Shown here: positions 2-27,083 of the stretch, in pieces | How positions within the stretch are numbered: position 1 is the first letter of the stretch | How the letters are laid out: each line of letters opens with the position of its first letter | Assembly: GCA_003645215.1 (NCBI GenBank) | Contig: QNEM01000002.1 | Location: 1 to 53,652 of the forward strand | Origin: Gammaproteobacteria bacterium | GTDB lineage: Bacteria; Pseudomonadota; Gammaproteobacteria; Eutrophobiales; Eutrophobiaceae | Length of the DNA: 53,652 nucleotides | Reading direction: 5' to 3' | The notes under the pieces: generated by a model | What the model saw: the letters and a program-made list of their open reading frames with translations, nothing else | What the model was told of the DNA's origin: nothing | The model's database searches: none | Program-made: the position numbers and the translations under genes

Positions 2-646
2 GCATTTACCGGTCAGGCATTTATCACCACGGATCTGGATGATAATCAGATCACCGCTTTTCATCCGGGAGCCATGGATTATGCCCATGAGAACACGGTA
101 TTTGATGCAGAGGGGATAAGTATTGGCATAATTTCACCGGATGGGCGCGATGGCATGATTCAACATGCCAGTCAATTTGTAGAAGCAGATATTCCTTTTG
201 TGTTTGATCCCGGACAAGGTTTGCCTATGTTTACGGCAGAGGATCTTAAAAACTTTTTTAAACAGGCGACATGGATCACCGTGAATGATTATGAATGGCA
301 GATGATGCAGGAAAAGACTGATATGACTCCTCACGATGTTGCAGAGCTGGTAGATGCATTAATCGTGACCAAAGGTGGTGAAGGATCATTAATTTATACA
401 ACTGAAAAACGTTATGAAATACCCAGCGCCACACCATCAATACTTGAAGACCCTACAGGTTGTGGTGATGCCTATCGCGCAGGCCTGTTATATGGCCTGA
501 TGAATGATATGGACTGGGAAACCACAGGACGAATTGCCTCACTCATGGGCGCTATAAAAATTGAATGCCATGGCACGCAGAACCATTCGTTTACCATGGA
601 TGAATTCAAAGCTCGATTCAAAGAAGCCTTTGAACGGACTATGTGA
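2..646 (+). CDS. PfkB-family carbohydrate/nucleoside (adenosine-type) kinase, 5' end cut by window edge
   Basis: The frame of ORF 74..646 stays open back to nt 2 (AFTGQAFITTDLDDNQITAFHPGAMD...). C-terminal PfkB signature DPTGCGDAYRAGLLYG. TGA stop at 644-646. Confidence 0.85.
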   Translation, partial: AFTGQAFITTDLDDNQITAFHPGAMDYAHENTVFDAEGISIGIISPDGRDGMIQHASQFVEADIPFVFDPGQGLPMFTAEDLKNFFKQATWITVNDYEWQMMQEKTDMTPHDVAELVDALIVTKGGEGSLIYTTEKRYEIPSATPSILEDPTGCGDAYRAGLLYGLMNDMDWETTGRIASLMGAIKIECHGTQNHSFTMDEFKARFKEAFERTM

Positions 647-712
647 AGCGTTAAAAGTGAAGAGTGAAACGCAATCTTAATACTTTTCACGTTTAACACT
701 TAACGTTTCACC
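643..712. repeat. Heptamer-word inverted-repeat element, copy A (GTGAAG/GTGAAA left arm, TTTCAC right arm)
   Basis: Left arm is atGTGAAGcgttaaaaGTGAAGaGTGAAAcg and right arm is aCTTTTCACgtttaacacttaacgTTTCACc. It shares the core ACTTTTCAC(G/A)(T/C)TT with the copies at 20945 and 38118. The first GTGAAG word contains the pfkB-family stop codon. Confidence 0.7.
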
Positions 713-760: not shown

Positions 761-929
761 ATACTGTGCATTCACCTATATCTCGATCAACATCGGCTTA
801 GTTGATCTAAATCAATTCATTTTTGTGTGACTCTACTAGTCTCGTATGTATGTGCCTCCAGTTTATATAGCTGGGAAGGGCGGGTGTGATGGATGTTCTG
901 TCTTTATTAATAATAGGAGATCATTGATT

Positions 930-1271
930 ATGACAGTACCAGTTATTGAGATAAGTGGAATAGGACCAAAAGCAGCGGAATATCTAAGAAATAACGGGAT
1001 TTTTACTGCTGAGGACTTGCTCAAAGATGGCATTAACTGTCTACAGCAGGTACCGGGGTTTGGTAAAAACAGGGCAGAACAAATACTGGAAGTAATTACT
1101 GTCACGCTCGGTCTTGGCGGTAAAAAATCCAGCGCAAAGCCTGACAAGAAAAAGAAGAAAAAAAGCAAAGATAAAAATAAGAAAAAGTCCGGCAAGAGAA
1201 AGTCTGGCAAGGATAAGAAAAAAAGAGATAAGAAAGGTAAGAAGAAGGATAAGAAAAAAAAGAAAAAGTAA
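930..1271 (+). CDS. Helix-hairpin-helix (2x HhH) protein with a poly-lysine C-terminal tail (histone H1-like)
   Basis: ATG at 930 lies 9 nt after AGGAGA (915-920) and is preferred over the listed 846 start. HhH motifs are ISGIGPKAAEYL and VPGFGKNRAEQIL. By my count the last 49 residues hold 31 K and 2 R. Confidence 0.7.
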   Translation: MTVPVIEISGIGPKAAEYLRNNGIFTAEDLLKDGINCLQQVPGFGKNRAEQILEVITVTLGLGGKKSSAKPDKKKKKKSKDKNKKKSGKRKSGKDKKKRDKKGKKKDKKKKKK

Positions 1272-1337
1272 AGTAAGGTAGAAATTCTAAAAGTCATAGC
1301 TAACACATTAATAAACAGAGATCCTGGGAGATTGAAC

Positions 1338-2222
1338 ATGCCAAAAAATAAAGGCAATAATGCTGAGGCAAACATGAAGGATAAAGTGGACGAAGGGATC
1401 ATGACAGATGGTGAAGTTGATCCAAAACTGCTTGCAAGGAAAAAGAAAAAGCTACCGACGGAATTCTACGAAAAGGAATTGTTCAGGCTTCAGGTAGAAA
1501 TGGTAAAACTTCAGGAATGGATCAAGGAGAAAGACCTGAAGGTTGTGGTTATATTTGAAGGACGTGATGCAGCAGGAAAGGGTGGTGTCATAAAGCGCAT
1601 CACAGAGCATCTGAACCCTCGCGTCTGTCGTATAGCAGCATTACCTGCCCCATCGGAACGGGAAAAAACCCAATGGTACTTCGAGCGATACACTAATTAT
1701 TTGCCATCTGCAGGCGAGATGGTTTTGTTTGACCGTAGCTGGTACAACCGGGCAGGGGTAGAGGTAGTGATGGGATTTTGTACCGATGATGAACACCAGG
1801 AATTTCTGCGTTCCTGCCCGGAATTTGAGCGCATGCTGGTTCGATCCGGGATTATCCTGATTAAGTACTGGTTCTCTGTCAGTCATGGGGAACAGGAAAA
1901 ACGTTTTCAGGGCCGTAGAAAGCAACGGCACAAGTATTGGAAACTAAGTCCCATGGATATGGAATCCAGGGCACGCTGGAAAGAATATTCCAAGGCCAAG
2001 GATGAGATGTTTGCCCATACTGATATCAAGCAGGCACCCTGGTACGTTGTACCGTCGGACGACAAGAAGCGTGCACGACTCAACTGCATGGCACATCTGT
2101 TAAGTATGATCCCGTATGAGGATCTGGTGCCGGAAATTCCGAAACTACCGGCCCTGGGTGATATAGGTGGATATGTTCGCTCGCCTATGCACGATCAGAC
2201 GTTTGTCCCGGAGCTATACTAG
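1338..2222 (+). CDS. ppk2: Polyphosphate kinase 2 (PPK2 family)
   Basis: P-loop FEGRDAAGKGG, FDRSWYNRAG and WKLSPMD motifs typical of PPK2. ATG 1338 lies 7 nt after GGGAG; the listed ORF starts at TTG 1332. Confidence 0.9.
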   Translation: MPKNKGNNAEANMKDKVDEGIMTDGEVDPKLLARKKKKLPTEFYEKELFRLQVEMVKLQEWIKEKDLKVVVIFEGRDAAGKGGVIKRITEHLNPRVCRIAALPAPSEREKTQWYFERYTNYLPSAGEMVLFDRSWYNRAGVEVVMGFCTDDEHQEFLRSCPEFERMLVRSGIILIKYWFSVSHGEQEKRFQGRRKQRHKYWKLSPMDMESRARWKEYSKAKDEMFAHTDIKQAPWYVVPSDDKKRARLNCMAHLLSMIPYEDLVPEIPKLPALGDIGGYVRSPMHDQTFVPELY

Positions 2223-2248
2223 GGAACCGTAAAGAAAACCGGCATATC

Positions 2249-3691
2249 TCACATAAAGAATAGCCGGAGGCCATAAAAGAACGCAATAGCAAGCGCAGCA
2301 CCGGCCGGTATCGTAATCACCCATGAGATAATAATCTCCCGGACGATGCTGAAATTAACAGCGCCAATACCACGGGCGAGACCAACACCGAGAACAGCTC
2401 CAACGAGGGTGTGGGTCGTCGAGATCGGCAGGCCAAGCTTGGTCGCTATAACAATAGTCGTGGCAGCACCGAACTCTGCGCAGAATCCCCTGGTAGGGGT
2501 AAGTTGGGTGATCTTATGACCAATTGTTTCCATTACCCTCCAGCCCCAGGTCGCGAGTCCGATAACAATACCGATACCTCCAAGACCGAGCACCCACAGG
2601 GGAACTGGTGATTCTGCAGCGATACTGGCCCCTCCCGCCATGGCAACGGATATAACCGCCGACATGGGTCCGATTGCATTAGCAACGTCATTTGCCCCAT
2701 GGGCAAAAGCAACTAATGAGGCACTCAGGATCTGAAGATAGACAAAAAGTTTTTCTACCCTTTGATACTCTACGGTATTGGTATGGAATTCATATTTTCG
2801 TTGAGACTCGAAGCGAAGCCGTTTGACTTCGTCTAAGGTATCAGAGAGTTCTCTTTTCATACGTTTTGGTGCAGTAGAATGTACTCGCTCGAGATGTTTA
2901 ATCGCTTTTTCAAGCGCCTTTACGACGCTGGGGTCAGTTACAGCCTCTTGATCATCTTGTTTATCTTCCCCTTCCTGATCTGGCATTAGCGATACCAGCC
3001 ATAGACTAATCAGTGATGCAAGCAGACCTACACCCATGGCAACAACAAGGGCTTCTGGCAGATTTAGATCTAGATTCAGGTTCTTCAGGCCTTTAAAGAC
3101 CAGTGCCAGTGACAATATCGCGAAAACAGTAAAAACAATATAGGGCGCTAACTTTTTTGCAGCTCGAAGTGGATGGTGTTTAAAAAAGATGTGGCGTAAC
3201 AAGAGACGAAAGATGAGGTAGGAAATGATACCACTGAGTAGTGGTGAGACGATCCAGCTCAGGGCTATTTGTCCAACCATGTCCCAATGGACGGCAGAAA
3301 TTCCACCGTAAGCAACACCAAAACCGATCACAGCACCAACAATAGAGTGAGTTGTCGATACCGGCCATCCTTTCAGTGATGCAAATTGTAGCCAAACACC
3401 GGCAGCCAGGAGGGCAGCAAGCATACCGAGCATGAACGACAGGCCGTCACCGGCAAAGAGTGCAGGATCCACGATCCCCTTACGTACCGTCTCAGAGACA
3501 TGCGAGCCGGCCAGGAACGCCCCGCTGAATTCCAGGATTGCGGCTAAAATAACCGCACGGCGTATGGTCAGTGCACCGGAACCGACCGAGGTACCCATGG
3601 CATTGGCGACATCATTGGCACCAATGCCCCAGGCCATATAAAGCCCGAAAATAATTGCCAGGACAAGGATAATGAGAAACTGCGTTTCCAT
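2249..3691 (-). CDS. pit: Inorganic phosphate transporter, PiT family
   Basis: Two PHO4 repeats, each with the GANDVAN signature (GIGANDVANAMGTSVG, HGANDVANAIGP). Polytopic, with a charged central loop. Confidence 0.92.
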   Translation of the reverse strand: METQFLIILVLAIIFGLYMAWGIGANDVANAMGTSVGSGALTIRRAVILAAILEFSGAFLAGSHVSETVRKGIVDPALFAGDGLSFMLGMLAALLAAGVWLQFASLKGWPVSTTHSIVGAVIGFGVAYGGISAVHWDMVGQIALSWIVSPLLSGIISYLIFRLLLRHIFFKHHPLRAAKKLAPYIVFTVFAILSLALVFKGLKNLNLDLNLPEALVVAMGVGLLASLISLWLVSLMPDQEGEDKQDDQEAVTDPSVVKALEKAIKHLERVHSTAPKRMKRELSDTLDEVKRLRFESQRKYEFHTNTVEYQRVEKLFVYLQILSASLVAFAHGANDVANAIGPMSAVISVAMAGGASIAAESPVPLWVLGLGGIGIVIGLATWGWRVMETIGHKITQLTPTRGFCAEFGAATTIVIATKLGLPISTTHTLVGAVLGVGLARGIGAVNFSIVREIIISWVITIPAGAALAIAFFYGLRLFFM

Positions 3692-3738: not shown

Positions 3739-4413
3739 TTAATGGGATTCAAGTGTCATGCGAACCGAAGATGTAAGTTCCTCACATCGATCCGCGAGAC
3801 GTGCAACTTGCCTGATAATGCTGGTCCACAGGAAAAAATCACCGTGTGATATATCATCCTCGTGTGCCAGCATACTGCGTAACAATTCTCTCTGGATGAC
3901 ATCTGTTTCGTACTCTTTGTGTGCGACCTTGTCGACGAGTTCCTGGACGGTCTGTGCCTGAATACCACCAAAACCTGTTTCCAGAAGTTCGTCCAACTGG
4001 GCAATGACGCTGTGTGTCAATGTAAATGCTTCAAGGCTTTTGCTTACCAGGTCATTGAAGCCTGTTTCAAATCCTTCAAAGGTGTTGGCCTGCTTGAAGG
4101 TGAGTAACACAGCGAGATTCTCGGCACGGTTCGCTATGCTGTCCTGAACCTTGAGTATACGCAGGAGGTTCGCACGATCGACAGGCATAAATATGCCTCG
4201 CGGTAGATTGTTACGTATATCGTGTTTAATAAGATCTGCGGCGTGCTCCAGACGCGAGATTTTTTTTGCGAGAGATTTGACTTCAGACTTATCCTGACGA
4301 TGGTAGGCATCTATTATCTCCGGAATTTTAGCCACACATTCAGCCACTTTTTCCATATGCATTTGTAATGGAACAAAGGGAGATCGGCCAAAAACTTTTG
4401 CTATGCTACGCAT
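3739..4413 (-). CDS. DUF47/TIGR00153 PhoU-like phosphate transport regulator (PiT partner)
   Basis: 224-aa helical protein directly upstream of pit in the same operon. This is the classic ykaA-pit type pairing, and the sequence looks like the PhoU-like DUF47 family. Confidence 0.85.
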   Translation of the reverse strand: MRSIAKVFGRSPFVPLQMHMEKVAECVAKIPEIIDAYHRQDKSEVKSLAKKISRLEHAADLIKHDIRNNLPRGIFMPVDRANLLRILKVQDSIANRAENLAVLLTFKQANTFEGFETGFNDLVSKSLEAFTLTHSVIAQLDELLETGFGGIQAQTVQELVDKVAHKEYETDVIQRELLRSMLAHEDDISHGDFFLWTSIIRQVARLADRCEELTSSVRMTLESH

Positions 4414-4466
4414 GGTAGTGCTCCTCTATACAGGGATGAACGACATACAAGATTACAAGTATGGTA

Positions 4467-6005
4467 CTATTTTTCAAATTGGTCACTAGAAACATTATTA
4501 CTGGACTCTTCATTAATTTTCAGCTTGTAAGCTGTTGCAGAGACATAAGCAGCTTCTGTTTCAATATCTATCTCTGTTAATGGATGGTCATCAAGCCAGT
4601 TTTCAGGAAAAATAATCTTTAAATAATTATTCCCTGCTTTAAGTTTAAATTCTGGCAGTGCATCGGAAGATCTGCTGCGATGCAGGAGGATTGAAAACCT
4701 GACAATGATACACAAGCGCAGTATTCGATCGATATTATTTTCCGACATAGATTGAATTTCTTCTAATGGAAATTTGCGCCGATGGCTACGTACCAAAATG
4801 GCAAGTTCTGCCTGTGTCTGCCTTGAAAAGCCAGGCATATCAGAATGGTTTATCAGATATGCTCCATGCCTGTGATACTGGCTGTGAGCAACTGCAATTC
4901 CTATTTGATGTAATCTGATTGCCCATTTGATTAATTTCAGATCCTGCTTCTTGTCAAGTTGCCAATCAGCTTGTACTTGATCAAAACAATTCCTGGCAGT
5001 TATTTCTATTAATTTTACATGGTCTATATCTACAGAATAGCGGGCCATAAAATTATTAACTGTTGCGACCCGAACATCCTTGTTTTGAACCCTGCCTATC
5101 AAATCATGCAGTAAGCCCTCTCGTAGTGCCCCATCAGAAATAGATATTGATTCCAGATCGAGTGCCTCAAACACAGCAGATAATACCGCAACACCTCCAG
5201 GCAATATGGACTTCTGATTATTTGGAATAGATTCAAATCTGAGTTTCTTGATATGGCCTGCATTTATCATAACATCTGTTAATTTATCCAGAGATTCCCT
5301 GGTAATGCCAACATCACACCAGGATTTTTCCATGGCTATCTCATTTATTCTCAGGACTGCACCTGATGCTCCAAGCGCAACTTCCCATCCCATATTTTTA
5401 TATATTGTTCCTATTGTCTCCAGCTCCTGTCGACAGTGTAAAATAGCCTTGCACATTTTCTTTGCCGTGATTTCCCCATCATTGAAATAACGTTTGCTGA
5501 CACTGACAGAGCCCATATAAAGGCTTTCAGACAATATTGGCTCATAGCCCTGGCCAATAATGATTTCTGTACTACCACCGCCGATGTCAACAACAAGACA
5601 CTTTTTATTGTCCTGGAAAGCAGAATGAGCCACTCCCAGAAAAATTAACCGGGCTTCCTCAATACCTGAAATGATTTCTATCGGATGATCCAGTGCCAGT
5701 CTGGCTTTGTTTAAAAAAATATTACTATTGATTGCCAGTCGTAGGGCATTGGTTCCGACAGCATGTACATTCTCGTGAGGAATCTCATTTATCCTTTGAC
5801 CAAACCTCTCTAAAGCCTTCAGGGCATCTTCCATGGTTTCATCGCTAAGCATATTATGCTTATCAAGGCCACCAGCAAGTCTGACCGTGTCTTTAATGCG
5901 ATCAATTACCTGAATTTGATTATTATCGTTCTTGGCAACGATCATATGAAAGCTGTTTGAGCCTAAGTCGATAGCAGCATATATGTTGGGTTCAGATAGT
6001 GACAT
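4467..6005 (-). CDS. ppx: Exopolyphosphatase (Ppx/GppA family)
   Basis: ASKHA-fold motifs AIDLGSNSFHM and VVDIGGGSTE. 512 aa with a C-terminal HD-like helical domain. Confidence 0.92.
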   Translation of the reverse strand: MSLSEPNIYAAIDLGSNSFHMIVAKNDNNQIQVIDRIKDTVRLAGGLDKHNMLSDETMEDALKALERFGQRINEIPHENVHAVGTNALRLAINSNIFLNKARLALDHPIEIISGIEEARLIFLGVAHSAFQDNKKCLVVDIGGGSTEIIIGQGYEPILSESLYMGSVSVSKRYFNDGEITAKKMCKAILHCRQELETIGTIYKNMGWEVALGASGAVLRINEIAMEKSWCDVGITRESLDKLTDVMINAGHIKKLRFESIPNNQKSILPGGVAVLSAVFEALDLESISISDGALREGLLHDLIGRVQNKDVRVATVNNFMARYSVDIDHVKLIEITARNCFDQVQADWQLDKKQDLKLIKWAIRLHQIGIAVAHSQYHRHGAYLINHSDMPGFSRQTQAELAILVRSHRRKFPLEEIQSMSENNIDRILRLCIIVRFSILLHRSRSSDALPEFKLKAGNNYLKIIFPENWLDDHPLTEIDIETEAAYVSATAYKLKINEESSNNVSSDQFEK

Positions 6006-6025: not shown

Positions 6026-7651
6026 TTAATGTTTAACCAGGCTGGCCTTTGTTTTAGATACTTGTCCGATAGTACTATGTAATTTCCGCTGAGATGCAAT
6101 AATATTTTTGTATAGTACAGAATTTGATGGTGACGAAAATTTCCTGAATTTTACATCAAATGCTGATCTTACCTTTTTATTACGTATTGCGAGTCTTGTC
6201 ACCAGCATCTCTATTGCCTTTCTGGTCTCCAGGTCTATTCCAGTTTCATTTTCCATGTCTGATATAAAATGCTGTAATGAATCCTGCTGCACCTGTAAAT
6301 CCTGAAACTCCCCCAGATTGTCCTGCAGATCTTTCAGGTTTCCTATTAATTTTCGCATTTTGTTTTCAGGATAAAGGTTCTGAAAAAATTCATTCAGATA
6401 ACGTAGTTTTTTACATGTCTTACGCAATTCATGAAGTAAGGTAGCAGGAGAATCAGCAACGATGATATTGCCCTCTTTGTATGCCTTGCGGTAGGCACGC
6501 CAGACATGTTCACTGGCAACATTAACAATAGGCAGGTTTGCATTCTTTAGCATTGAATGCTTCGGAGCAGGGGTCTTGAGAAATTTTTCCCAGTCCTGTT
6601 TGAGTTTACGATAACGTACACTGTTCAGGACCTTTACAAGCTGATCATGCTCTTTATGCCTGTGCCGTTGCAGGAACTCGTATAAGGGGGTAATGTCTTC
6701 ACGTACATCTGCCGGTAATTTCTTTTTATATTCATTAAATGACAACAGATAAACATCCATATCACGAGCGGGTCCGCTTACTTCACCAAGCCAGGCAAAA
6801 TCCCTTTTGAACCTTGTTATCCGACGTTTGGGTAATACATTTCTGATTTGACTCAACAAAGAACGGGTGCGACGAACCGCAACGCGGAAATCATGCAGAA
6901 ATTCTGAATCAATGTCTTCTATGATCCCGTTTTCGTTATCTTTCATGGTTTCCAGTAATTGGTAGAAAATATTTTTAACTGCTGTATCTGCACGCTGATC
7001 AGGATCGCTTACTGTTATTATTTGAAGTTTTCTTCCCGGTTCCTTTGCATAATGTTTCAAGGTGGTGATAAGCGGGTCATCAGACAATGGGACAAGATGG
7101 CACTCTTTCTGTAATAAGCGACATGCTTTTTTTATTACCCCTTTATTACCCTTGATTGGGTATAAATGAACGCGCTTGCCAATATTTATATTGCTTTGAT
7201 TATTTTTTACGCAATCATCTTTAGATGGGCAATCACGCTGAAATTCTATACGTAATATGATCTTTCCCTGATCATCATGGACATACGCAATGTGAATACG
7301 CGTAGCAACAGTAGCAACCGGTAACAGGGCACGAAACTCCAATATTTTCTCAAGCTTTGTCTTGATGTCCGATTCTCCCAGATCCCAGACAAATCCTGGA
7401 ATTTGGTCAATTGGGCACCTGCCGTACACTTGTTCTGCTCCCAGTGGACGCCAGGTGAGCCAATTTCCTATCTCATCCATAGCTGATTCCAATACACTAC
7501 CTGCACTGAATATTCGCCAGTCGAATGTATCCAGATAGGTACGGGTAATTACATTAGGCTCCTGAAATTGCAGATTGAGATTTTGCTTCAAAAAAGCCTC
7601 CACCTGCCTGATGGAACCATTCCTGGGTATCTTGAAGATAGTTGTTTTCAC
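6026..7651 (-). CDS. CHAD domain protein with an N-terminal CYTH-like domain (no obvious ExExK motif)
   Basis: CHAD-type basic helices (HDFRVAVRRTRSLL, LHELRKTCKKLRYL). The N-terminal ~200 aa resembles CYTH-CHAD proteins (TYLDTFDWRI) but lacks an N-terminal ExExK. Confidence 0.82.
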   Translation of the reverse strand: MKTTIFKIPRNGSIRQVEAFLKQNLNLQFQEPNVITRTYLDTFDWRIFSAGSVLESAMDEIGNWLTWRPLGAEQVYGRCPIDQIPGFVWDLGESDIKTKLEKILEFRALLPVATVATRIHIAYVHDDQGKIILRIEFQRDCPSKDDCVKNNQSNINIGKRVHLYPIKGNKGVIKKACRLLQKECHLVPLSDDPLITTLKHYAKEPGRKLQIITVSDPDQRADTAVKNIFYQLLETMKDNENGIIEDIDSEFLHDFRVAVRRTRSLLSQIRNVLPKRRITRFKRDFAWLGEVSGPARDMDVYLLSFNEYKKKLPADVREDITPLYEFLQRHRHKEHDQLVKVLNSVRYRKLKQDWEKFLKTPAPKHSMLKNANLPIVNVASEHVWRAYRKAYKEGNIIVADSPATLLHELRKTCKKLRYLNEFFQNLYPENKMRKLIGNLKDLQDNLGEFQDLQVQQDSLQHFISDMENETGIDLETRKAIEMLVTRLAIRNKKVRSAFDVKFRKFSSPSNSVLYKNIIASQRKLHSTIGQVSKTKASLVKH

Positions 7652-7888
7652 AGCTTATTCTTTATATGAAAATTGGCAATCCACACAAAACTCCTTAACT
7701 GGATATATAGCTGGAAGATTAAGTAATTTCTGTTGTTTTTTCATTGACCTGAATCAACATCATGCCAAACACTACCGAAAAGTGCCTTGTTAAGCCCCTC
7801 TACGTGTGTTTCCTCACGTTCAGGCAAAAGTTGGAAAGTGTAGAATATCAGGTAATATTGACCTGTTTAAAATTGCAATAGGCAAACA

Positions 7889-8407
7889 ATGAAACGCAGC
7901 CTACTTATCATGCGTCATGGGAAATCTGACTGGAATACCGACAGTCACTCAGACTTCGAACGCCCACTTGCTAAACGTGGCCAGAAAGCAGTGAAGCGTA
8001 TTGGCCAATGGCTAATACAGCAGAAATTGACCCCCGACCACATCATCAGTTCTCCAGCCAATCGCGCACAACAAACAGCAATCGGAATATGCCGGAAACT
8101 AAAGCTTGCCGAATCAAGCATTACCTGGGAGTCGAGGATTTATGGAGCAGAAATGCAAACACTACTCGATGTGCTGGCTGCATGCCCAGCAGAGAAACAG
8201 AGGGTCATGTTAATCGGTCATAATCCTGGTCTTGAGATGTTGCTTCGCTATCTTGCAGTTGACACATTTGAAACCTCTCATGGTCACAATCCCATGCCCA
8301 CTGCAGCACTGGCTTCCCTGGATATGCCGGATAACTGGGAGGATTTAGATGCGGGTGCCGGGGAACTGATTTCTATTATCTACCCCCGTGAACTTGCAGA
8401 TATCTAA
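7889..8407 (+). CDS. sixA: SixA-type phosphohistidine phosphatase (histidine phosphatase superfamily)
   Basis: LIMRHGKS catalytic motif, SPANRAQQT and LIGHNPG motifs; 172 aa. Confidence 0.85.
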   Translation: MKRSLLIMRHGKSDWNTDSHSDFERPLAKRGQKAVKRIGQWLIQQKLTPDHIISSPANRAQQTAIGICRKLKLAESSITWESRIYGAEMQTLLDVLAACPAEKQRVMLIGHNPGLEMLLRYLAVDTFETSHGHNPMPTAALASLDMPDNWEDLDAGAGELISIIYPRELADI

Positions 8408-8450
8408 TATTCCCTTTAACTAAAATATAATAGAAATCTCTGTTTAATAT

Positions 8451-10712
8451 CTATAATGCATCCTGCCTGACGTTTCTGTGGCTGATTACCCTGGTTTTCC
8501 GTTTCTTTAGGCGCAGCGCTTCCTTCTGTCTTTCTTCTGCCTCCTGTATCAGTTTTTCCTGACTACCCAAAGCTGTTTCATCAGTTGGTATACGCTTGAT
8601 GTAGCTTCCATCCGATTGCATATCCCAGGCATTACGTTGATCCGCGAGGTGGATATCTAATATGGTGCGTAGTTTTTCCTGTAGTGCCGGGGTATCCACT
8701 ATCACAGCTACTTCAACCCGGTGTTCCAGATTACGTTTCATTAAATCTGCTGAGCCTATGTAATACTCTTCATCACCACCATTGTGGAAATAACAGATAC
8801 GGCTATGTTCAAGGAACCTGCCAACGATACCCATAACACGTATGTTTTCCGAGATGCCCTGTATGCCGGGACGCAGTCGGCAAGTATCACGAATTATGAG
8901 GTCGATATGTACACCAGCCTGTGATGCTTCATATAGCCCACGAATTATATCGGCGTCTTCCAGTGCATTCATTTTAAACTGGATCAGACCATTCTTATTT
9001 TCCGAATGTTGTTCTATTTCTCGCTTGATCTTGCTGAGCAGGGCACGTTTCAGCATCTTGGGTGACGGAATAATCTTTCGATAATTACGTTTTGGCGTGT
9101 AGCCTGTAGTAAGGTAATTGAACAATTCAGTAAGATCCTGACCAATGATCCGATCATCGGTCAACAAACCGATGTCAGTGTACAGTCTCGCAGTACCAGC
9201 GTGATAGTTACCGGTTCCGATGTGCGCATACCGGCGCAGTCCATCATAATCATTGCGTACTACCAGTATTACCTTACTGTGAGTCTTGAGACCCAGCACG
9301 CCATAAGTCACATGAATACCAGCTTCTTCCATTCTGTTTGCCCAACGTATATTGGCCGCCTCATCAAATTTGGCTTTTAATTCAACTACAACTGCCACCT
9401 GTTTGCCGTTACGCGCGGCACTAATAAGATACTCAATGACTTTGGTATCACTGGAAGTACGATAAAGCGTCATTTTAATGGCAAGCACCTTGGGATCACG
9501 GCTCGCTTCTTTCAGAAACCGCTCTACAGAAGTAGAAAATGATTCGTATGGATGCTGGAGTAAAATCGATCCCGAATCACGGATAGTATAAAAAATACTT
9601 GGAGAACCCTTTAACTTGGGATGATCGACTGGATGATGTGGTACGTAGTGAAGCTCTGGATTCTCCAGCGATGCCAATTGAAATAAATCGGCCATTGCTA
9701 TCATGCTACCTGTTTCAAATACATCAGTAGATTCATCCAGGCCCAATTCTGCGGCGAGCATCCCTCGGCGTTCAGGATTCATATCTTTTTCGGTTACAAC
9801 ACGTACGATGCGTGAGAATTTACGGTCTCGTAATTCGGATTCGATCAATTCCAGAAGGTCATCAGCCTGATCTTCATCTTTCTCCGTATTGGCATTGCGA
9901 ATCACATTGAATAATTCACATGCCTGAATTTCCATTTTTGGGAAGAGCAGGTCAAGATTATTGGAAATAACATCTTCCAGAAGAACAAATTTTGTGGAAT
10001 CGTCTATTTTGAGAAATCGGGGGATGCCGCTACCTATCGGCACCTTTACCCGCGCAAGTAATGATTCGTCGTCATCAGGATAGTTGAGCGTAACCAGCAG
10101 GTTTAAGGATCGATTGGAGATAAAAGGAAAAGGATGTGCAGGGTCCATGGCCTGTGGTGTAACCAGCGGAAAAATATTCTCCATGAAAAAATCACGCACT
10201 ATCTTTTTATTATCTTCATCAAGCGTGTCATATGAGAGTACACGAATGTCGTGCTCCTCAAGTTCTTTCAATAATTGTGGTAGTAGCAGATCTGTCTCAG
10301 CTTCAATGTTACGAACAACATCGTAGCATTCATTGATCTGTTCCTGGGGCGTGCGCCCGTCATCAGTTAAATCATGTACTCCTGCACCTACCTGCAATTT
10401 CAGTCCACCAATACGCTTCATGAAAAATTCGTCCAGATTGGATCCGATAATTGCCAGGAATTTTATTCGCTCCAGAAGTGGAGTATTCGGGTCTTGAGCC
10501 TCATGCAAGATGCGCCAGATAAATTCGAGCCAGGTTAATTCACGATTTAGATAATACTCGGTAGATGTCGGGTCATAATCGACTGCCTGCTCGATATCCT
10601 GAGTCTCGCTGGTAAGCGTAGACGAATCGGGGCTTTCATCTGAACTTTCCAATAGATGAAGTGATTCTACATTCTGATTTTGTGACTTCTGTCGCATGTC
10701 TGCCATTATCAA
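8451..10712 (-). CDS. ppk1: Polyphosphate kinase 1, with a ~45-aa acidic Ser/Thr-rich N-terminal extension
   Basis: 753 aa. YYLNRELTWLEFIWRILHEA aligns with the E. coli PPK N-terminus. PLD-like C-terminal domains are present (GLKTHSKVILVV, RFLEHSRI). Confidence 0.95.
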   Translation of the reverse strand: MIMADMRQKSQNQNVESLHLLESSDESPDSSTLTSETQDIEQAVDYDPTSTEYYLNRELTWLEFIWRILHEAQDPNTPLLERIKFLAIIGSNLDEFFMKRIGGLKLQVGAGVHDLTDDGRTPQEQINECYDVVRNIEAETDLLLPQLLKELEEHDIRVLSYDTLDEDNKKIVRDFFMENIFPLVTPQAMDPAHPFPFISNRSLNLLVTLNYPDDDESLLARVKVPIGSGIPRFLKIDDSTKFVLLEDVISNNLDLLFPKMEIQACELFNVIRNANTEKDEDQADDLLELIESELRDRKFSRIVRVVTEKDMNPERRGMLAAELGLDESTDVFETGSMIAMADLFQLASLENPELHYVPHHPVDHPKLKGSPSIFYTIRDSGSILLQHPYESFSTSVERFLKEASRDPKVLAIKMTLYRTSSDTKVIEYLISAARNGKQVAVVVELKAKFDEAANIRWANRMEEAGIHVTYGVLGLKTHSKVILVVRNDYDGLRRYAHIGTGNYHAGTARLYTDIGLLTDDRIIGQDLTELFNYLTTGYTPKRNYRKIIPSPKMLKRALLSKIKREIEQHSENKNGLIQFKMNALEDADIIRGLYEASQAGVHIDLIIRDTCRLRPGIQGISENIRVMGIVGRFLEHSRICYFHNGGDEEYYIGSADLMKRNLEHRVEVAVIVDTPALQEKLRTILDIHLADQRNAWDMQSDGSYIKRIPTDETALGSQEKLIQEAEERQKEALRLKKRKTRVISHRNVRQDAL

Positions 10713-10991: not shown

Positions 10992-12779
10992 TCAGGCAGC
11001 TTCTTTAATTTGAATGTTGATGTCTTCTTCCTCTTTGAAGAAGACTTCTTCAAGTTGTCTATATTCAGAACCAATGATTACAAGATATTTGGCTGCCTTG
11101 AGCAGCAAGCGGTAGATTTCCAGAACCGAGGAACTGCAGGTAATCAGGGATACACCTTGTTCAGGTGTTATTTTCTTTTCCCTGATCAAGCGGTCAATAT
11201 CCAGCAGCAGGGTATTATCGTCGGATTCTGCCGAGCTCTTGATTCCACCCAGAAGGGTATCGCATTCATGGAAAAATATTTCCTCATCATCCTTCAGGAA
11301 TGTTCTGAGTAATCTGATCACCGCACATTTTAATTTCAAATATTCATTATTAAGAACGGTATTCTTGTCACTCTTGTGCCTGGCGATCTCTGATGTCAGT
11401 GTCTTGACATGAAGTAGTATTTCCATTGCATCGCGATGAATCTTCTTTAGCCGGGTTACGCGTTCATTGTCTTCACGTGCAAGCTGGAACTTTTCCTGAA
11501 TTGAAGAAGCAAAATTCAAGACCTCGCTGTAGATTGGTTGAATACGCATTTTAATAAACTCCTCCTGTTTAATGCCTGGATGCGCCTTCGCCTTTACAAT
11601 CTCTTCAATAGGTTTGTCTGATTTAATATCCTTACGATGAACACCAAGACTATGTGCAATTGCTTCAATGATAGCCTCCTGGTAAAGACGGCGGGTTTCT
11701 TCCAGCAGGGCCTTAATTGCAGTTTCCGGATATTTCAGGGCCTGTTTATTCAGGTATTTTGGTTTTGAAAACACGGGCTCCGGCTTAACTTTCTCGGGGA
11801 GAATAAAGATAACCAGATTTGCTATGATCGTGACGCACCAGATCAGAAGCAGGGTATTCAGCACGTTAAAGGTACTGTGAAACAGTGCCAGACCAATGGG
11901 AATATCCGTAGCAACAACAAGAGGGTTCGCACCCATTAATTCAAAAGCCAGTTTGTCTATTATGGCCAGATACGGGACAAACAATATCAATATCCAGGTC
12001 ACACCAATCACATTAAATATAAGGTGAGCGAGGGCGGCACGTCTTGCCTCGGTGCTGGAGATCGCCGCCGCCAGGTTTGCGGTAATGGTTGTACCGATAT
12101 TTTCACCAAGGACAATGGCCGCTGCTGCTTCAAAGGTGAGAACACCCTGGCTCGCTGCAACCAGCGTAATCGCCATGGTGGCACTGGAAGATTGCAAGAT
12201 TAGCGTCAATATGGTGCCTATGAGCACAAACAACATAATACCAAGAGCACCCCGTTCAGTGTTGCGTTGGAAGAACTCAAACAATTCAGGATTGTTGTCC
12301 AGACCCGTTATGGCATCCTTCATGAATTCGAGGCCAATAAACAGCAGGGCAAAACCGATAATGAAATTACCGAGGGCATTCAATTGACGATCTTTTTTCA
12401 GGTAAAAGATCAAGCCGACGATGATCATGGGGACGACTATGGAACTCATCTTTACCTTGAAACCGAGAACCGCAATCAGCCAGGCAGTAAAGGTGGTGCC
12501 GATATTAGCGCCCATAATCACGCTGATTGCTTCGGTCAGGCTTAACAACTGGGCGTTTACAAAGCTGACCACCATAAGTGTGGTCGCGGAGGAGGATTGA
12601 ATCAGGCCGGTAACAAATAAACCCGTGAGTACGCCTTTGAACCGATTCGATGTTAACTGAATCATGACTTTGCGCATCTTATCCCCGGCCAAATCCATCA
12701 GCGCGTCACTCATGACCTTCATGCCATAAAGAAACAGCGCCAGGGAACCAAGTAAATTAAGAAACTCAAAAAATCCCAT
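10992..12779 (-). CDS. Na+/phosphate cotransporter family protein (NptA/YjbB-like) with a C-terminal PhoU-like domain
   Basis: Duplicated Na_Pi_cotrans repeats carry QSSSAT signatures (LIQSSSATTL, ILQSSSATMA), followed by a ~230-aa soluble helical tail. Confidence 0.9.
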   Translation of the reverse strand: MGFFEFLNLLGSLALFLYGMKVMSDALMDLAGDKMRKVMIQLTSNRFKGVLTGLFVTGLIQSSSATTLMVVSFVNAQLLSLTEAISVIMGANIGTTFTAWLIAVLGFKVKMSSIVVPMIIVGLIFYLKKDRQLNALGNFIIGFALLFIGLEFMKDAITGLDNNPELFEFFQRNTERGALGIMLFVLIGTILTLILQSSSATMAITLVAASQGVLTFEAAAAIVLGENIGTTITANLAAAISSTEARRAALAHLIFNVIGVTWILILFVPYLAIIDKLAFELMGANPLVVATDIPIGLALFHSTFNVLNTLLLIWCVTIIANLVIFILPEKVKPEPVFSKPKYLNKQALKYPETAIKALLEETRRLYQEAIIEAIAHSLGVHRKDIKSDKPIEEIVKAKAHPGIKQEEFIKMRIQPIYSEVLNFASSIQEKFQLAREDNERVTRLKKIHRDAMEILLHVKTLTSEIARHKSDKNTVLNNEYLKLKCAVIRLLRTFLKDDEEIFFHECDTLLGGIKSSAESDDNTLLLDIDRLIREKKITPEQGVSLITCSSSVLEIYRLLLKAAKYLVIIGSEYRQLEEVFFKEEEDINIQIKEAA

Positions 12780-26261: not shown

Positions 26262-27083
26262 TCATATTGCAGGGACACTAAACAATTTGTCATCCTCTAG
26301 TCGTAACGCGGTCAATTCACCTCCCCAGAGACAACCTGTATCAATGGGATAAACATTGTAAGGCCTAAAATCCTGAATGGTGCCCAGATGCACTGTTGAC
26401 CAGTGTCCGAATATGATTTTATCGTGCCTGCTTTTTCTTCCATCAACCATGAACCAGGGTGTTAAATGTTCCCCTTGCGAACCGGGTGCGCCTTTCTCAG
26501 AGAAATTTATTTCATTTTCATCATCAAGGTAACGCATGCGGGTGAAGCAATTCACAATAAATCGCAGCCGATCATTTCCTGTCAGGTTTTCATCCCAGAC
26601 ATTGGGTTCATTTCCATACATGACTTCAAGGAACGAAAGATAATTTTCACTATTTAAAACCTGTTCGAACTCTTCAGCCAATTCCATTGCCTGTTCGATA
26701 TTCCACTGTGGCGGCAACCCTGCATGGATCATGGTGAAGTTTAAATCATTGTCATAATGCATGAGTACCTGTTGACGAATCCAAGTGATTAATTCTTGCT
26801 TGTCTGCTGAGGTGAGAATGGACGTCAATGTATCTTTCTTTTTAGGTGGTGTTATTTCTTCGGCAAGCGCTAGAAGATGAAGATCATGATTGCCAAGGAC
26901 GGTGATGGCCGACTTGCCCAGTTTTATAACAAAATTTAATACTTCAAGTGAGTCTGGTCCCCGGTTGACCAGATCACCCACAAACCATAATCGATCATTT
27001 GTCTCATCAAAATTAATTTTATCCAGTAATTTCTGGAGTTCTTTGAAACAACCTTGAACATCGCCAATCGCGTAAGTCGACAT
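26262..27083 (-). CDS. apaH: Bis(5'-nucleosyl)-tetraphosphatase (symmetrical)
   Basis: Metallophosphatase motifs GDVQGC, GDLVNRGP and GNHD; 273 aa; downstream of apaG. Confidence 0.93.
   Translation of the reverse strand: MSTYAIGDVQGCFKELQKLLDKINFDETNDRLWFVGDLVNRGPDSLEVLNFVIKLGKSAITVLGNHDLHLLALAEEITPPKKKDTLTSILTSADKQELITWIRQQVLMHYDNDLNFTMIHAGLPPQWNIEQAMELAEEFEQVLNSENYLSFLEVMYGNEPNVWDENLTGNDRLRFIVNCFTRMRYLDDENEINFSEKGAPGSQGEHLTPWFMVDGRKSRHDKIIFGHWSTVHLGTIQDFRPYNVYPIDTGCLWGGELTALRLEDDKLFSVPAI

Follow-up and report, generated by a model that had tools for sequence, protein, structure and literature searches.

Most bacteria contain polyphosphate (polyP) granules; these are situated within or upon the nucleoid, and regular spacing or inheritance of the granules is common. 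The sole protein known to organize them is AlgP of Pseudomonas aeruginosa, which is located on the granules, controls their number and spacing, and possesses a 154-aa tail of KPAA repeats; loss of the protein or deletion of its tail leads to fewer, larger granules (PMC9239181, PMC11894788, PMC13052382). According to a 2025 review, polyP granule positioning proteins outside Pseudomonas are unidentified, and it is unknown whether positioning needs ATP hydrolysis; the review describes no ATP-driven positioning system for these granules (PMC13052382). Among proteins of other storage granules, PhaH of Caulobacter crescentus ties polyhydroxybutyrate (PHB) granules to the nucleoid by a helix-hairpin-helix (HhH) domain (Salinas et al. 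2023, as summarized in PMC13052382 and PMC12678847), and PhaM of Cupriavidus necator and PhaF of Pseudomonas putida, which bind PHB and polyhydroxyalkanoate (PHA) granules, contact DNA through H1-like lysine tails (PMC13052382). Two further kinds of polyP binder are known: the CHAD domain of the granule-associated "phosins" (PMC6537752, PMC9239181), and the PASK motifs, which are polyacidic and abound in serine and lysine, and lysine repeats, both of which bind polyP noncovalently via their lysines in a manner abolished by Lys-to-Arg substitution, as judged by the loss of the shift, and are reportedly rare among model bacteria (PMC12345225; for lysine repeats, Neville 2024 as cited therein). 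Here, we analyzed 53,652 nucleotides of a gammaproteobacterial contig (QNEM01000002.1, assembly GCA_003645215.1; the window), which encodes, directly upstream of a gene for polyphosphate kinase 2 (PPK2), a 113-aa protein with an N-terminal HhH core and a C-terminal polylysine tail, termed HhH-K. An earlier interpretation made from the letters of the window alone (the sequence-only reading) had proposed that this protein bridges DNA and polyP granules. We found that HhH-K represents a widespread architecture that is undescribed as a family and recurs beside polyP genes in several lineages, and that it could join polyP granules to the nucleoid as an adaptor working by electrostatic contacts.

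The comparison of HhH-K to these systems revealed both likenesses and differences. As in AlgP, a folded N-terminal domain is followed by a long, disordered, lysine-rich C-terminal tail with a high positive charge; a granule-nucleoid link has been proposed for AlgP, and AlgP colocalizes with Ppk2A just as the HhH-K gene adjoins ppk2. The two proteins differ in length (352 aa for AlgP versus 113 aa for HhH-K), in their N-terminal regions (a predicted coiled coil versus an (HhH)2 core, with no shared domain), and in their tails, that of HhH-K being 49 aa of lysine with D/S/G/N and containing only one alanine and one proline, whereas that of AlgP is composed of K/A/P. HhH-K has neither a K/A/P repeat tail nor an AlgP-type N-terminal domain, and on these two counts we rejected its membership in the AlgP/H1-like family. 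The available portions of two AlgP papers (PMC9239181, PMC11894788) make no mention of algP adjoining polyP genes. In the summaries cited above, PhaH shares with HhH-K the use of an HhH domain as a nonspecific DNA anchor in a storage-granule/nucleoid protein, but its cargo is PHB rather than the polyP proposed here, and its HhH domain is C-terminal, with the N-terminus binding the hydrophobic granule, whereas HhH-K has an N-terminal HhH core and a polycationic tail. HhH-K was rejected as a PhaH-type phasin since its HhH core is N-terminal and a second folded region is lacking, a distinction from PhaH that is drawn by description only; no PHA genes were present among the annotated open reading frames (ORFs) of the window. 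PhaM and PhaF are likewise bipartite adaptors in which a lysine-rich tail binds a polyanion and whose loss changes granule number and size, and the activation of a polymer synthase by PhaM parallels a possible effect of HhH-K on PPK2, but these proteins have PHB/PHA cargo, tails of the PAKKA/AKP type, phasin-like granule-binding N-termini, and no HhH (PMC13052382). The CHAD phosins (PptA and others) are nonenzymatic polyP binders that decorate granules and are encoded in polyP loci (PMC6537752, PMC6771595). In the window, a CHAD phosin gene lies 5 kb from HhH-K, and at locus L045 (described below) a second one belongs to the operon of a family member. The CHAD domain is, however, a folded helical bundle with a basic surface and no DNA-binding domain, whereas HhH-K would bind by a disordered tail, and phosin identity was rejected for lack of any CHAD (PF05235) match in HhH-K even at E ≤ 1. 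The PASK targets (Nsr1, Top1, and the "PASK-like" YihI of Escherichia coli) resemble HhH-K in having disordered K/S/D/E tracts that bind polyP by lysines, and the HhH-K family tails use Lys over Arg at 97:3; the PASK motifs differ in lying inside large, functionally unrelated proteins, none of which is tied genomically to polyP or fused to HhH (PMC12345225). By analogy, HhH-K may resemble AlgP and PhaH in its mode of action, a likeness that we put forward tentatively and that has nearly even chances in our judgment, with no kinship having been detected to either protein. An adaptor between storage granules and the nucleoid with a basic disordered region is a kind of system already known, and the HhH-K architecture is undescribed.

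The HhH-K gene and the two modules of its product

The ORF encodes MTVPVIEISGIGPKAAEYLRNNGIFTAEDLLKDGINCLQQVPGFGKNRAEQILEVITVTLGLGGKKSSAKPDKKKKKKSKDKNKKKSGKRKSGKDKKKRDKKGKKKDKKKKKK and has the Shine-Dalgarno (SD) sequence AGGAGA and the 66-nt distance between its stop codon and the ppk2 ATG that the sequence-only reading had described (Table 1). A search with the core as the query identified 22 orthologous proteins of 70 to 96% identity, 21 of which were full length (104–121 aa) and one a 52-aa fragment. The alignment demonstrated that the lysine tail was in the same frame in 21 of the 21 full-length orthologues, that indels were exclusively in-frame, and that the tails share a recognizable backbone, ...KSKDKNKKKSGKDKKKSDKKGKK...; the AGGAGA sequence was kept in most orthologous loci. 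Free variation of the tail in frame or length had been named in the sequence-only reading as grounds for abandoning its proposal: the length did vary, but the frame never did. For ten distinct orthologous DNA sequences, taken from the window and loci L016 to L028, the pooled ratios of nonsynonymous to synonymous substitution rates (dN/dS; Nei-Gojobori) were 0.178 (core) and 0.185 (tail). Because the dN/dS is ∼0.18 and the frame is kept, we conclude that HhH-K is a genuine gene whose tail codes for protein and is subject to purifying selection. A +1-frame ORF (1114–1281) also runs through the tail DNA and gives an R/K-rich peptide, and an antisense ORF (863–1402, minus strand) across the same DNA gives an F/L-rich peptide; we rejected both as genes and attribute them to the A-rich composition. 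A ribosomal frameshift on the A runs of the tail would still yield a basic tail.

HhH domains bind the DNA backbone without sequence specificity and are typically DNA-directed. Residues 5 to 54 of HhH-K matched Pfam HHH_5 (PF14520) with E = 1.8e-12 (47.9 bits versus a cut-off of 27), and two HhH motifs were assigned because subthreshold single-motif Pfam matches fell at residues 3 to 24 and 38 to 54. The corresponding hairpins, G10-I11-G12 and P42-G43-F44-G45, are both of the Gly-hydrophobic-Gly type, in agreement with the two motifs claimed by the sequence-only reading. Across 57 to 65 divergent family members, G10, G12, and G43 were invariant, and L19, L30, F44, R48, and A49 were nearly so. 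The AlphaFold2 (AF2) model, generated with the orthologue alignment, possesses a helical core with a predicted local distance difference test (pLDDT) score of ∼80 over residues 1 to 60, in which DSSP identified three helices of at least four residues. When the core was compared to the Protein Data Bank (PDB) by Foldseek, the N-terminal domain of RAD51/RadA, the C-terminal domain of the RNA polymerase alpha subunit (alpha-CTD), the acidic-repeat domains of NusA (NusA AR), BAF, and the HhH of Y-family polymerases were recovered with probabilities of 0.94 to 1.0, but with E values of only 0.02 to 0.2 and with target-normalized template modeling (TM) scores of 0.5 to 0.7 for small domains only. 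Weak Foldseek E values are what a domain of 60 residues would be expected to give. When PDB sequences were searched with a profile, the matches were solely generic HhH segments of polymerases. On the basis of the Pfam matches and the two hairpins, HhH-K is assigned to the (HhH)2/HHH_5 domain class.

The tail of 49 residues consists of 31 K, 2 R, 5 S, 5 D, 3 G, 1 A, 1 P, and 1 N (∼63% lysine; net charge +28), in exact agreement with the 31 K, 2 R, and interspersed S/D/G reported from the sequence alone, and in the AF2 model it has a pLDDT of ∼50 and no secondary structure. The comparison to PASK tracts made in the sequence-only reading was also borne out. With PASK defined as a 20-aa window of at least 75% D/E/S/K that includes at least one K (PASKMotifFinder, PMC12345225), the best 20-aa window of the tail is 90% D/E/S/K, which makes the HhH-K tail PASK-like in the formal sense. 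The tail is a natural bacterial case of a strong PASK-like/lysine-repeat motif. Its lysine codons are mixed (17 AAG and 14 AAA) with no A run longer than 8 nt, as had been noted, and this mixing had been ascribed to selection against long poly(A). For the window alone, that interpretation was weakly supported and short of significance, as the enrichment of AAG over background had a Fisher p of 0.057 and the probability of a maximum A run of 8 or fewer under background codon usage was 0.09. It reached significance when seven independent lineages were combined, each of which had a longest A run of 6 to 8 nt that was always under the simulated median (combined Fisher p = 0.0019).

Breadth of the family and its association with polyP genes

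A core-only profile was used for an exhaustive search of 1.84 billion representative proteins clustered at 50% identity, providing 498 matches at E ≤ 1e-3; approximately 60 to 70 of the best 150 were 90 to 190 aa in length with the HhH core starting at residue 1, a short linker, and a K-rich tail, the remaining matches being long multi-HhH proteins of no relation. The full-length profile applied to a 90%-clustered collection retrieved 456 proteins at E ≤ 1e-10, nearly all of which were 105 to 145 aa and contained PF14520 alone. Precomputed annotation assigned PF14520 to every homologue. These results indicate that the HhH-K architecture is no rare oddity but a broad family of at least 456 proteins. 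The 171 members that were analyzed had a median length of 123 aa, and their last 40 residues contained 61% K, 8.6% D, 6.4% G, 5.6% S, 3.4% A, and 1.3% P; the tails had ∼12% acidic residues, a K/(K + R) ratio of 0.97, and a median charge of +23, and 167 of the 171 qualified as PASK by the definition given above.

The sequence-only reading had not recognized a fusion of HhH with polylysine as a described family, and we found none: Pfam recognized only the domain, no NCBIfam model matched HhH-K, and no paper in the searched literature links an HhH protein with polyP granules or covers the HhH plus poly-K architecture. Members are named "helix-hairpin-helix domain-containing protein" or "hypothetical protein [Sedimenticola sp.]", and other automated names, including those of the Joint Genome Institute (JGI), are Holliday junction resolvasome RuvABC DNA-binding subunit, transcription termination factor NusA, endonuclease III, NAD-dependent DNA ligase, and 3-methyladenine DNA glycosylase. 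RuvA is a protein of ∼200 aa in which domains I (OB fold) and III flank the HhH domain II. RuvA identity was rejected for HhH-K, which has HHH_5 only, followed by the lysine tail, with no OB fold (domain I), no domain III, and no NCBIfam match; judged from their domain content, the RuvA, NusA, endonuclease III, ligase, and glycosylase names of family members are domain-level mislabels.

Several groups of matches were excluded from the family. Beyond the close orthologues, scans of genome collections and metagenomes yielded generic HhH segments, namely Omnitrophota NusA C-termini, chlamydial RuvA, DUF4332-type proteins, an archaeal XPF/Hef-like nuclease, and membrane proteins, and the clade of the window itself was absent from the species-representative genomes that were searched. 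The long multi-HhH proteins that scored high in the exhaustive search (P0045–P0062) are unrelated repeat proteins and not fusions to polyP domains. The tblastn search of a plasmid collection gave no match to HhH-K, and the scan of viral contigs gave partial single-motif matches only. P0177, from "uncultured Desulfobulbus sp." (L040 and L041), was left out of the linkage count as an HhH-only remnant: at L040:10001–10195 and L041:10001–10195 a 64-aa HhH-only ORF is present, no frame of the DNA downstream of it encodes a lysine tail, polyP genes are absent within 10 kb, and it looks like a decayed copy of a family gene. Two members from a eukaryotic transcriptome set (P0255 and P0263) are filed under Anaeramoeba flamelloides; these most likely stem from bacterial symbionts or contaminants rather than from Anaeramoeba.

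To assess linkage, members on long contigs were grouped by core identity (30–55% between groups), and one member per group was examined. Strong linkage to polyP genes was observed in three of the seven lineages. For the window clade (lineage A), PPK2 was located directly 3' of HhH-K in 13 of the 13 orthologous loci that reached beyond HhH-K, and the genes for Pit, PhoU_div, Ppx, CHAD, and PPK1 followed on longer contigs. For lineage F (P0194, locus L038), the order was CNNM, HhH-K, Metallophos, a P-loop protein, PHO4, PhoU_div, and then PPK2, with the Pit-PhoU_div pair 2 kb and PPK2 6 kb from HhH-K. For lineage H (P0291, locus L045 on a 4.7-Mb contig), HhH-K was the last cistron of a tight same-strand CHAD-ParA-CYTH-RHH-HhH-K operon (7047–10363, plus strand), encoding a CHAD protein of 509 aa, a ParA/MinD-type ATPase (AAA_31, E = 9e-35), a CYTH protein, and a 61-aa ribbon-helix-helix (RHH) protein with the K-rich N-terminus MGDDKKGKKKSKKD and a weak match to RHH_9 (E = 0.003); Ppx-GppA (4068–5630, plus strand), a SixA-like gene, and PPK1 (1435–3642, minus strand) were situated 2 to 8 kb upstream. 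As a control, the seven polyP/phosphate proteins of the window were compared by tblastn to all 49 loci gathered, and polyP genes were found in 0 of 27 nonfamily loci (∼330 kb), which were generic-HhH scan matches and partly redundant. By a rough, uncomputed estimate, the stretches that are no more than 10 kb from a ppk, ppx, CHAD, or pit-phoU locus make up ∼2 to 3% of a genome. Given this estimate, linkage in three of seven lineages would be very unlikely to have arisen by chance, and because the three arrangements differ they are not a single inherited synteny block. The linkage to ppk genes across genomes that the sequence-only reading had asked about was recovered in three lineages and was not clear in the other four; we conclude that linkage of HhH-K to polyP genes is frequent but not obligatory.

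A possible adaptor between polyP granules and the nucleoid

The explanation that we favor, although we rate it at slightly below an even chance, is that HhH-K serves as an adaptor that links polyP granules electrostatically to the nucleoid, as was originally proposed from the sequence. According to this model, HhH-K would be a small cytoplasmic protein with two polyanion-binding modules, and a conserved promoter/operator region of its own would drive its transcription together with ppk2. The folded N-terminal (HhH)2 domain would contact the DNA backbone nonspecifically, and the tail, with its +28 charge, interspersed D/S/G/N, and almost no arginine, would bind polyP electrostatically and partition onto or into polyP granules, while possibly also binding DNA. 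Through contact with both polyanions, HhH-K would hold nascent granules, along with the PPK2 working on them, at the nucleoid and could influence granule nucleation, number, spacing, or inheritance. We infer the binding of polyP and of DNA, the pairing of each module with its polymer, the localization to granules, and the effects on granules from sequence features and from analogy to the systems described above. The adaptor reading is backed by the conservation of the protein, the breadth of the family, the recurrent polyP context, and two functional precedents; this support is contextual in nature, and that polylysine binds polyanions is chemically unsurprising.

Several points weigh against this reading. 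The core is slightly acidic (net charge of −2 in HhH-K; family median of 0), and some (HhH)2 domains act as protein-interaction modules, NusA AR being among the Foldseek matches. Four of the seven lineages are without clear polyP linkage: for lineage G (P0243, L046) there was only weak linkage, to a Na/Pi cotransporter alone at 9 kb; there was no polyP gene within 10 kb for lineage B (P0228, L042) or for lineage C (P0099, Sedimenticola; L043/L044); and none was found on the single side examined for lineage D (P0212, L047). The small sample of seven lineages and the partial redundancy of the control loci also count on this side. Lastly, the lysine-rich tail is the DNA-binding module in AlgP, PhaF, and PhaM (PMC9239181, PMC13052382), and for that reason the assignment of DNA to the HhH core and polyP to the tail can be offered only provisionally; by the same analogy, DNA binding may be all that the HhH-K tail does.

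A candidate positioning module based on ParA is provided by the L045 operon. Its ParA and its RHH protein with a basic N-terminus resemble, as judged from sequence, a type Ib partition module (ParA/ParG), making the operon a candidate ATP-driven system for positioning polyP granules. HhH-K itself was rejected as the ParA partner (McdB/ParG-like), as its N-terminus is not basic and the 61-aa RHH protein at L045 fits the partner role better; no ParA gene was present among the annotated ORFs of the window. A more far-reaching version of the adaptor reading, which we regard as rather unlikely, is that HhH-polylysine proteins constitute a dedicated and widespread class of polyP-granule proteins, in effect a disordered-tail phosin that also grips DNA, and that in some lineages they function with ParA/MinD, the ParG-like RHH protein, CHAD, and CYTH as an ATP-driven system for granule positioning and segregation. 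If this were true, polyP granules would have a first partition system of the ParA type, and a granule-organizing factor would have been identified for the first time outside Pseudomonas. Being small, easily purified, equipped with an HhH domain and a polyP-type tail, and recurrent in polyP operons, the proteins of the family are concrete and testable candidates for the polyP-chromatin interface of uncultured Gammaproteobacteria from sediments and lakes and of other lineages.

The main alternative, somewhat unlikely in our estimation, is that HhH-K is a generic nucleoid-associated protein whose HhH core and tail both bind DNA and which compacts or protects the chromosome in an H1-like manner, its proximity to ppk2 reflecting at most coregulation in starvation. 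The established role of HhH as a nonspecific DNA-backbone binder fits this alternative, as do the breadth of the family and the small size of the proteins, which are like nucleoid-associated proteins in these respects, and the four lineages that have no clear polyP neighbors. The DNA binding by the tails of AlgP, PhaF, and PhaM also agrees with it (PMC9239181, PMC13052382). Three independently arranged polyP neighborhoods versus none among the 27 controls are, however, hard to ascribe to chance; the K/D/S/G/N tails with ∼12% acidic residues, 3% A, and 1% P fit the PASK pattern and are unlike the K/A/P tails of H1-like proteins; and at L045 the gene closes a CHAD operon. Even as a merely generic nucleoid protein, HhH-K would represent an undescribed family of nucleoid-associated proteins.

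It is decidedly less probable that HhH-K is an accessory factor of PPK2, with the tail capturing or presenting polyP or tuning the activity or chain-length preference of the enzyme and the HhH core acting as a protein-protein module. NusA AR and the alpha-CTD both mediate protein contacts, and their recovery by Foldseek is consistent with such a module, as is a core that is not basic; the close, conserved adjacency to ppk2 and the probable cotranscription in the window clade point the same way. Direct adjacency is, however, confined to that clade, with PPK2 being 6 kb distant at L038 and absent within 10 kb at L045, and characterized PPK2 enzymes function without such a partner, according to the accessible portion of PMC8776046.

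We consider it very unlikely that HhH-K is an RNA- or ribosome-associated basic protein modulated by polyP. E. coli YihI and Rnr are lysine-rich polyP binders of this kind that participate in ribosome biogenesis and translation, and factors of translation and of the ribosome that have lysine-rich disordered regions are overrepresented among the known bacterial polyP binders (PMC12345225); furthermore, a tail such as that of HhH-K would bind any polyanion, including RNA. On the other side, ribosomal or RNA-metabolism genes were not consistently nearby in the examined lineage loci, HhH domains are typically directed to DNA, and nothing further in the data suggests RNA. The idea that HhH-K is A-rich low-complexity DNA open by chance in this frame, to which the additional +1 and antisense ORFs might lend some credence, is effectively refuted by the conserved SD sequence, the Pfam-significant N-terminal domain, the exclusively in-frame indels, the tail dN/dS of ∼0.18, and the hundreds of homologues that share the architecture.

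Regulatory DNA and gene content of the window

The features in and around HhH-K are compiled in Table 1. The same PfkB gene precedes HhH-K in the orthologous loci L016 and L017. The hairpin that overlaps the end of this gene lacks a strong T tract and is probably a terminator or attenuator separating the PfkB gene from an HhH-K/ppk2 unit. The conserved noncoding block downstream of the hairpin contains the inverted repeat ATCTCGATCAAC-N9-GTTGATCTAAAT at 780 to 812. Rfam yielded no match for the window or for positions 600 to 1400, and for this reason the block is not considered a known RNA element. A scan with the sigma-70 consensus revealed no convincing promoter upstream of HhH-K and none in the block, and by eye the inverted repeat is unlike a Pho box. 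This block is probably the promoter/operator of the HhH-K/ppk2 unit, a candidate site for an unidentified regulator. Because no terminator was predicted between the HhH-K stop codon and ppk2, cotranscription of the two genes is probable, and the hairpin after PfkB together with the conserved block and its inverted repeat leads us to propose that they form a unit with its own regulated promoter.

Table 1. Features of the window in the region of HhH-K and the adjoining polyP/phosphate genes
Feature	Position	Strand	Basis
PfkB-family kinase	...-646	+	annotated ORF upstream of HhH-K
Long hairpin, arms of 27 nt, 78% complementary	643–711	+	inverted repeat; starts 3 nt before the end of the PfkB gene
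Conserved noncoding block	777–840	+	nearly invariant among orthologous loci; flanking intergenic DNA diverges
Shine-Dalgarno AGGAGA	915–920	+	read from the sequence; ATG at 930 lies 9 nt further on
HhH-polylysine gene (HhH-K)	930–1271	+	ORF of 113 aa plus stop codon
(HhH)2 core, residues 1–64	930–1121	+	Pfam HHH_5; net charge −2
Disordered PASK-like polylysine tail, residues 65–113	1122–1268	+	composition, charge, AF2 disorder
Spacer, 66 nt, with ppk2 SD GGGAGA	1272–1337	+	spacer and SD conserved in orthologues
PPK2, single-domain polyphosphate kinase 2	1338–2222	+	Pfam PPK2, E = 1.8e-104
PiT/PHO4 inorganic phosphate transporter	2249–3691	−	Pfam PHO4, E = 1.2e-125
PhoU_div (DUF47)	3739–4413	−	Pfam PhoU_div, E = 9.2e-51
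Exopolyphosphatase Ppx/GppA	4467–6005	−	Pfam Ppx-GppA, E = 2.5e-69, plus domain III
CHAD-domain protein, 541 aa	6026–7651	−	Pfam CHAD, E = 7.8e-60, residues 230–460
SixA-like histidine phosphatase (His_Phos_1)	7889–8407	+	TIGR00249 sixA, 72.2 bits, just under the cut-off of 74.5
PPK1, polyphosphate kinase 1	8451–10712	−	NCBIfam poly_P_kin, E = 4.4e-235; four PPK1 Pfam domains
Na/Pi cotransporter	10992–12779	−	domain annotation; edge of the phosphate/polyP island

As judged from these domain matches, the 12 kb downstream of HhH-K constitute a complete polyP/phosphate island, and ppk2 is not the sole polyP gene nearby. PhoU_div is the usual partner of Pit transporters. The PPK1 ORF was counted from its first TTG, and the true start may be internal. 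Approximately 229 N-terminal and 80 C-terminal residues of the CHAD protein were left unmatched by Pfam. A CYTH domain is present there in many CHAD proteins, and the unmatched region may be a divergent CYTH, which L045 encodes as a gene of its own. Elsewhere the window encodes malate synthase G, PEPCK, Lgt, ThyA, DHFR, two Amt transporters, and LptD-SurA-PdxA-RsmA and is an ordinary gammaproteobacterial chromosome; the order of the LptD-SurA-PdxA-RsmA genes is in keeping with Gammaproteobacteria. Genes for Metallophos (calcineurin-like phosphoesterase) proteins were present near HhH-K at L038:1962–3404, L043:12562–13150, and L046:6745–7638, with additional copies at L040:8266–9072 and at 26262–27083 of the window, all on the minus strand and directly adjoining HhH-K in L038; their proximity may be a coincidence, the family being common, or may reflect an uncharacterized phosphatase role in polyP turnover.

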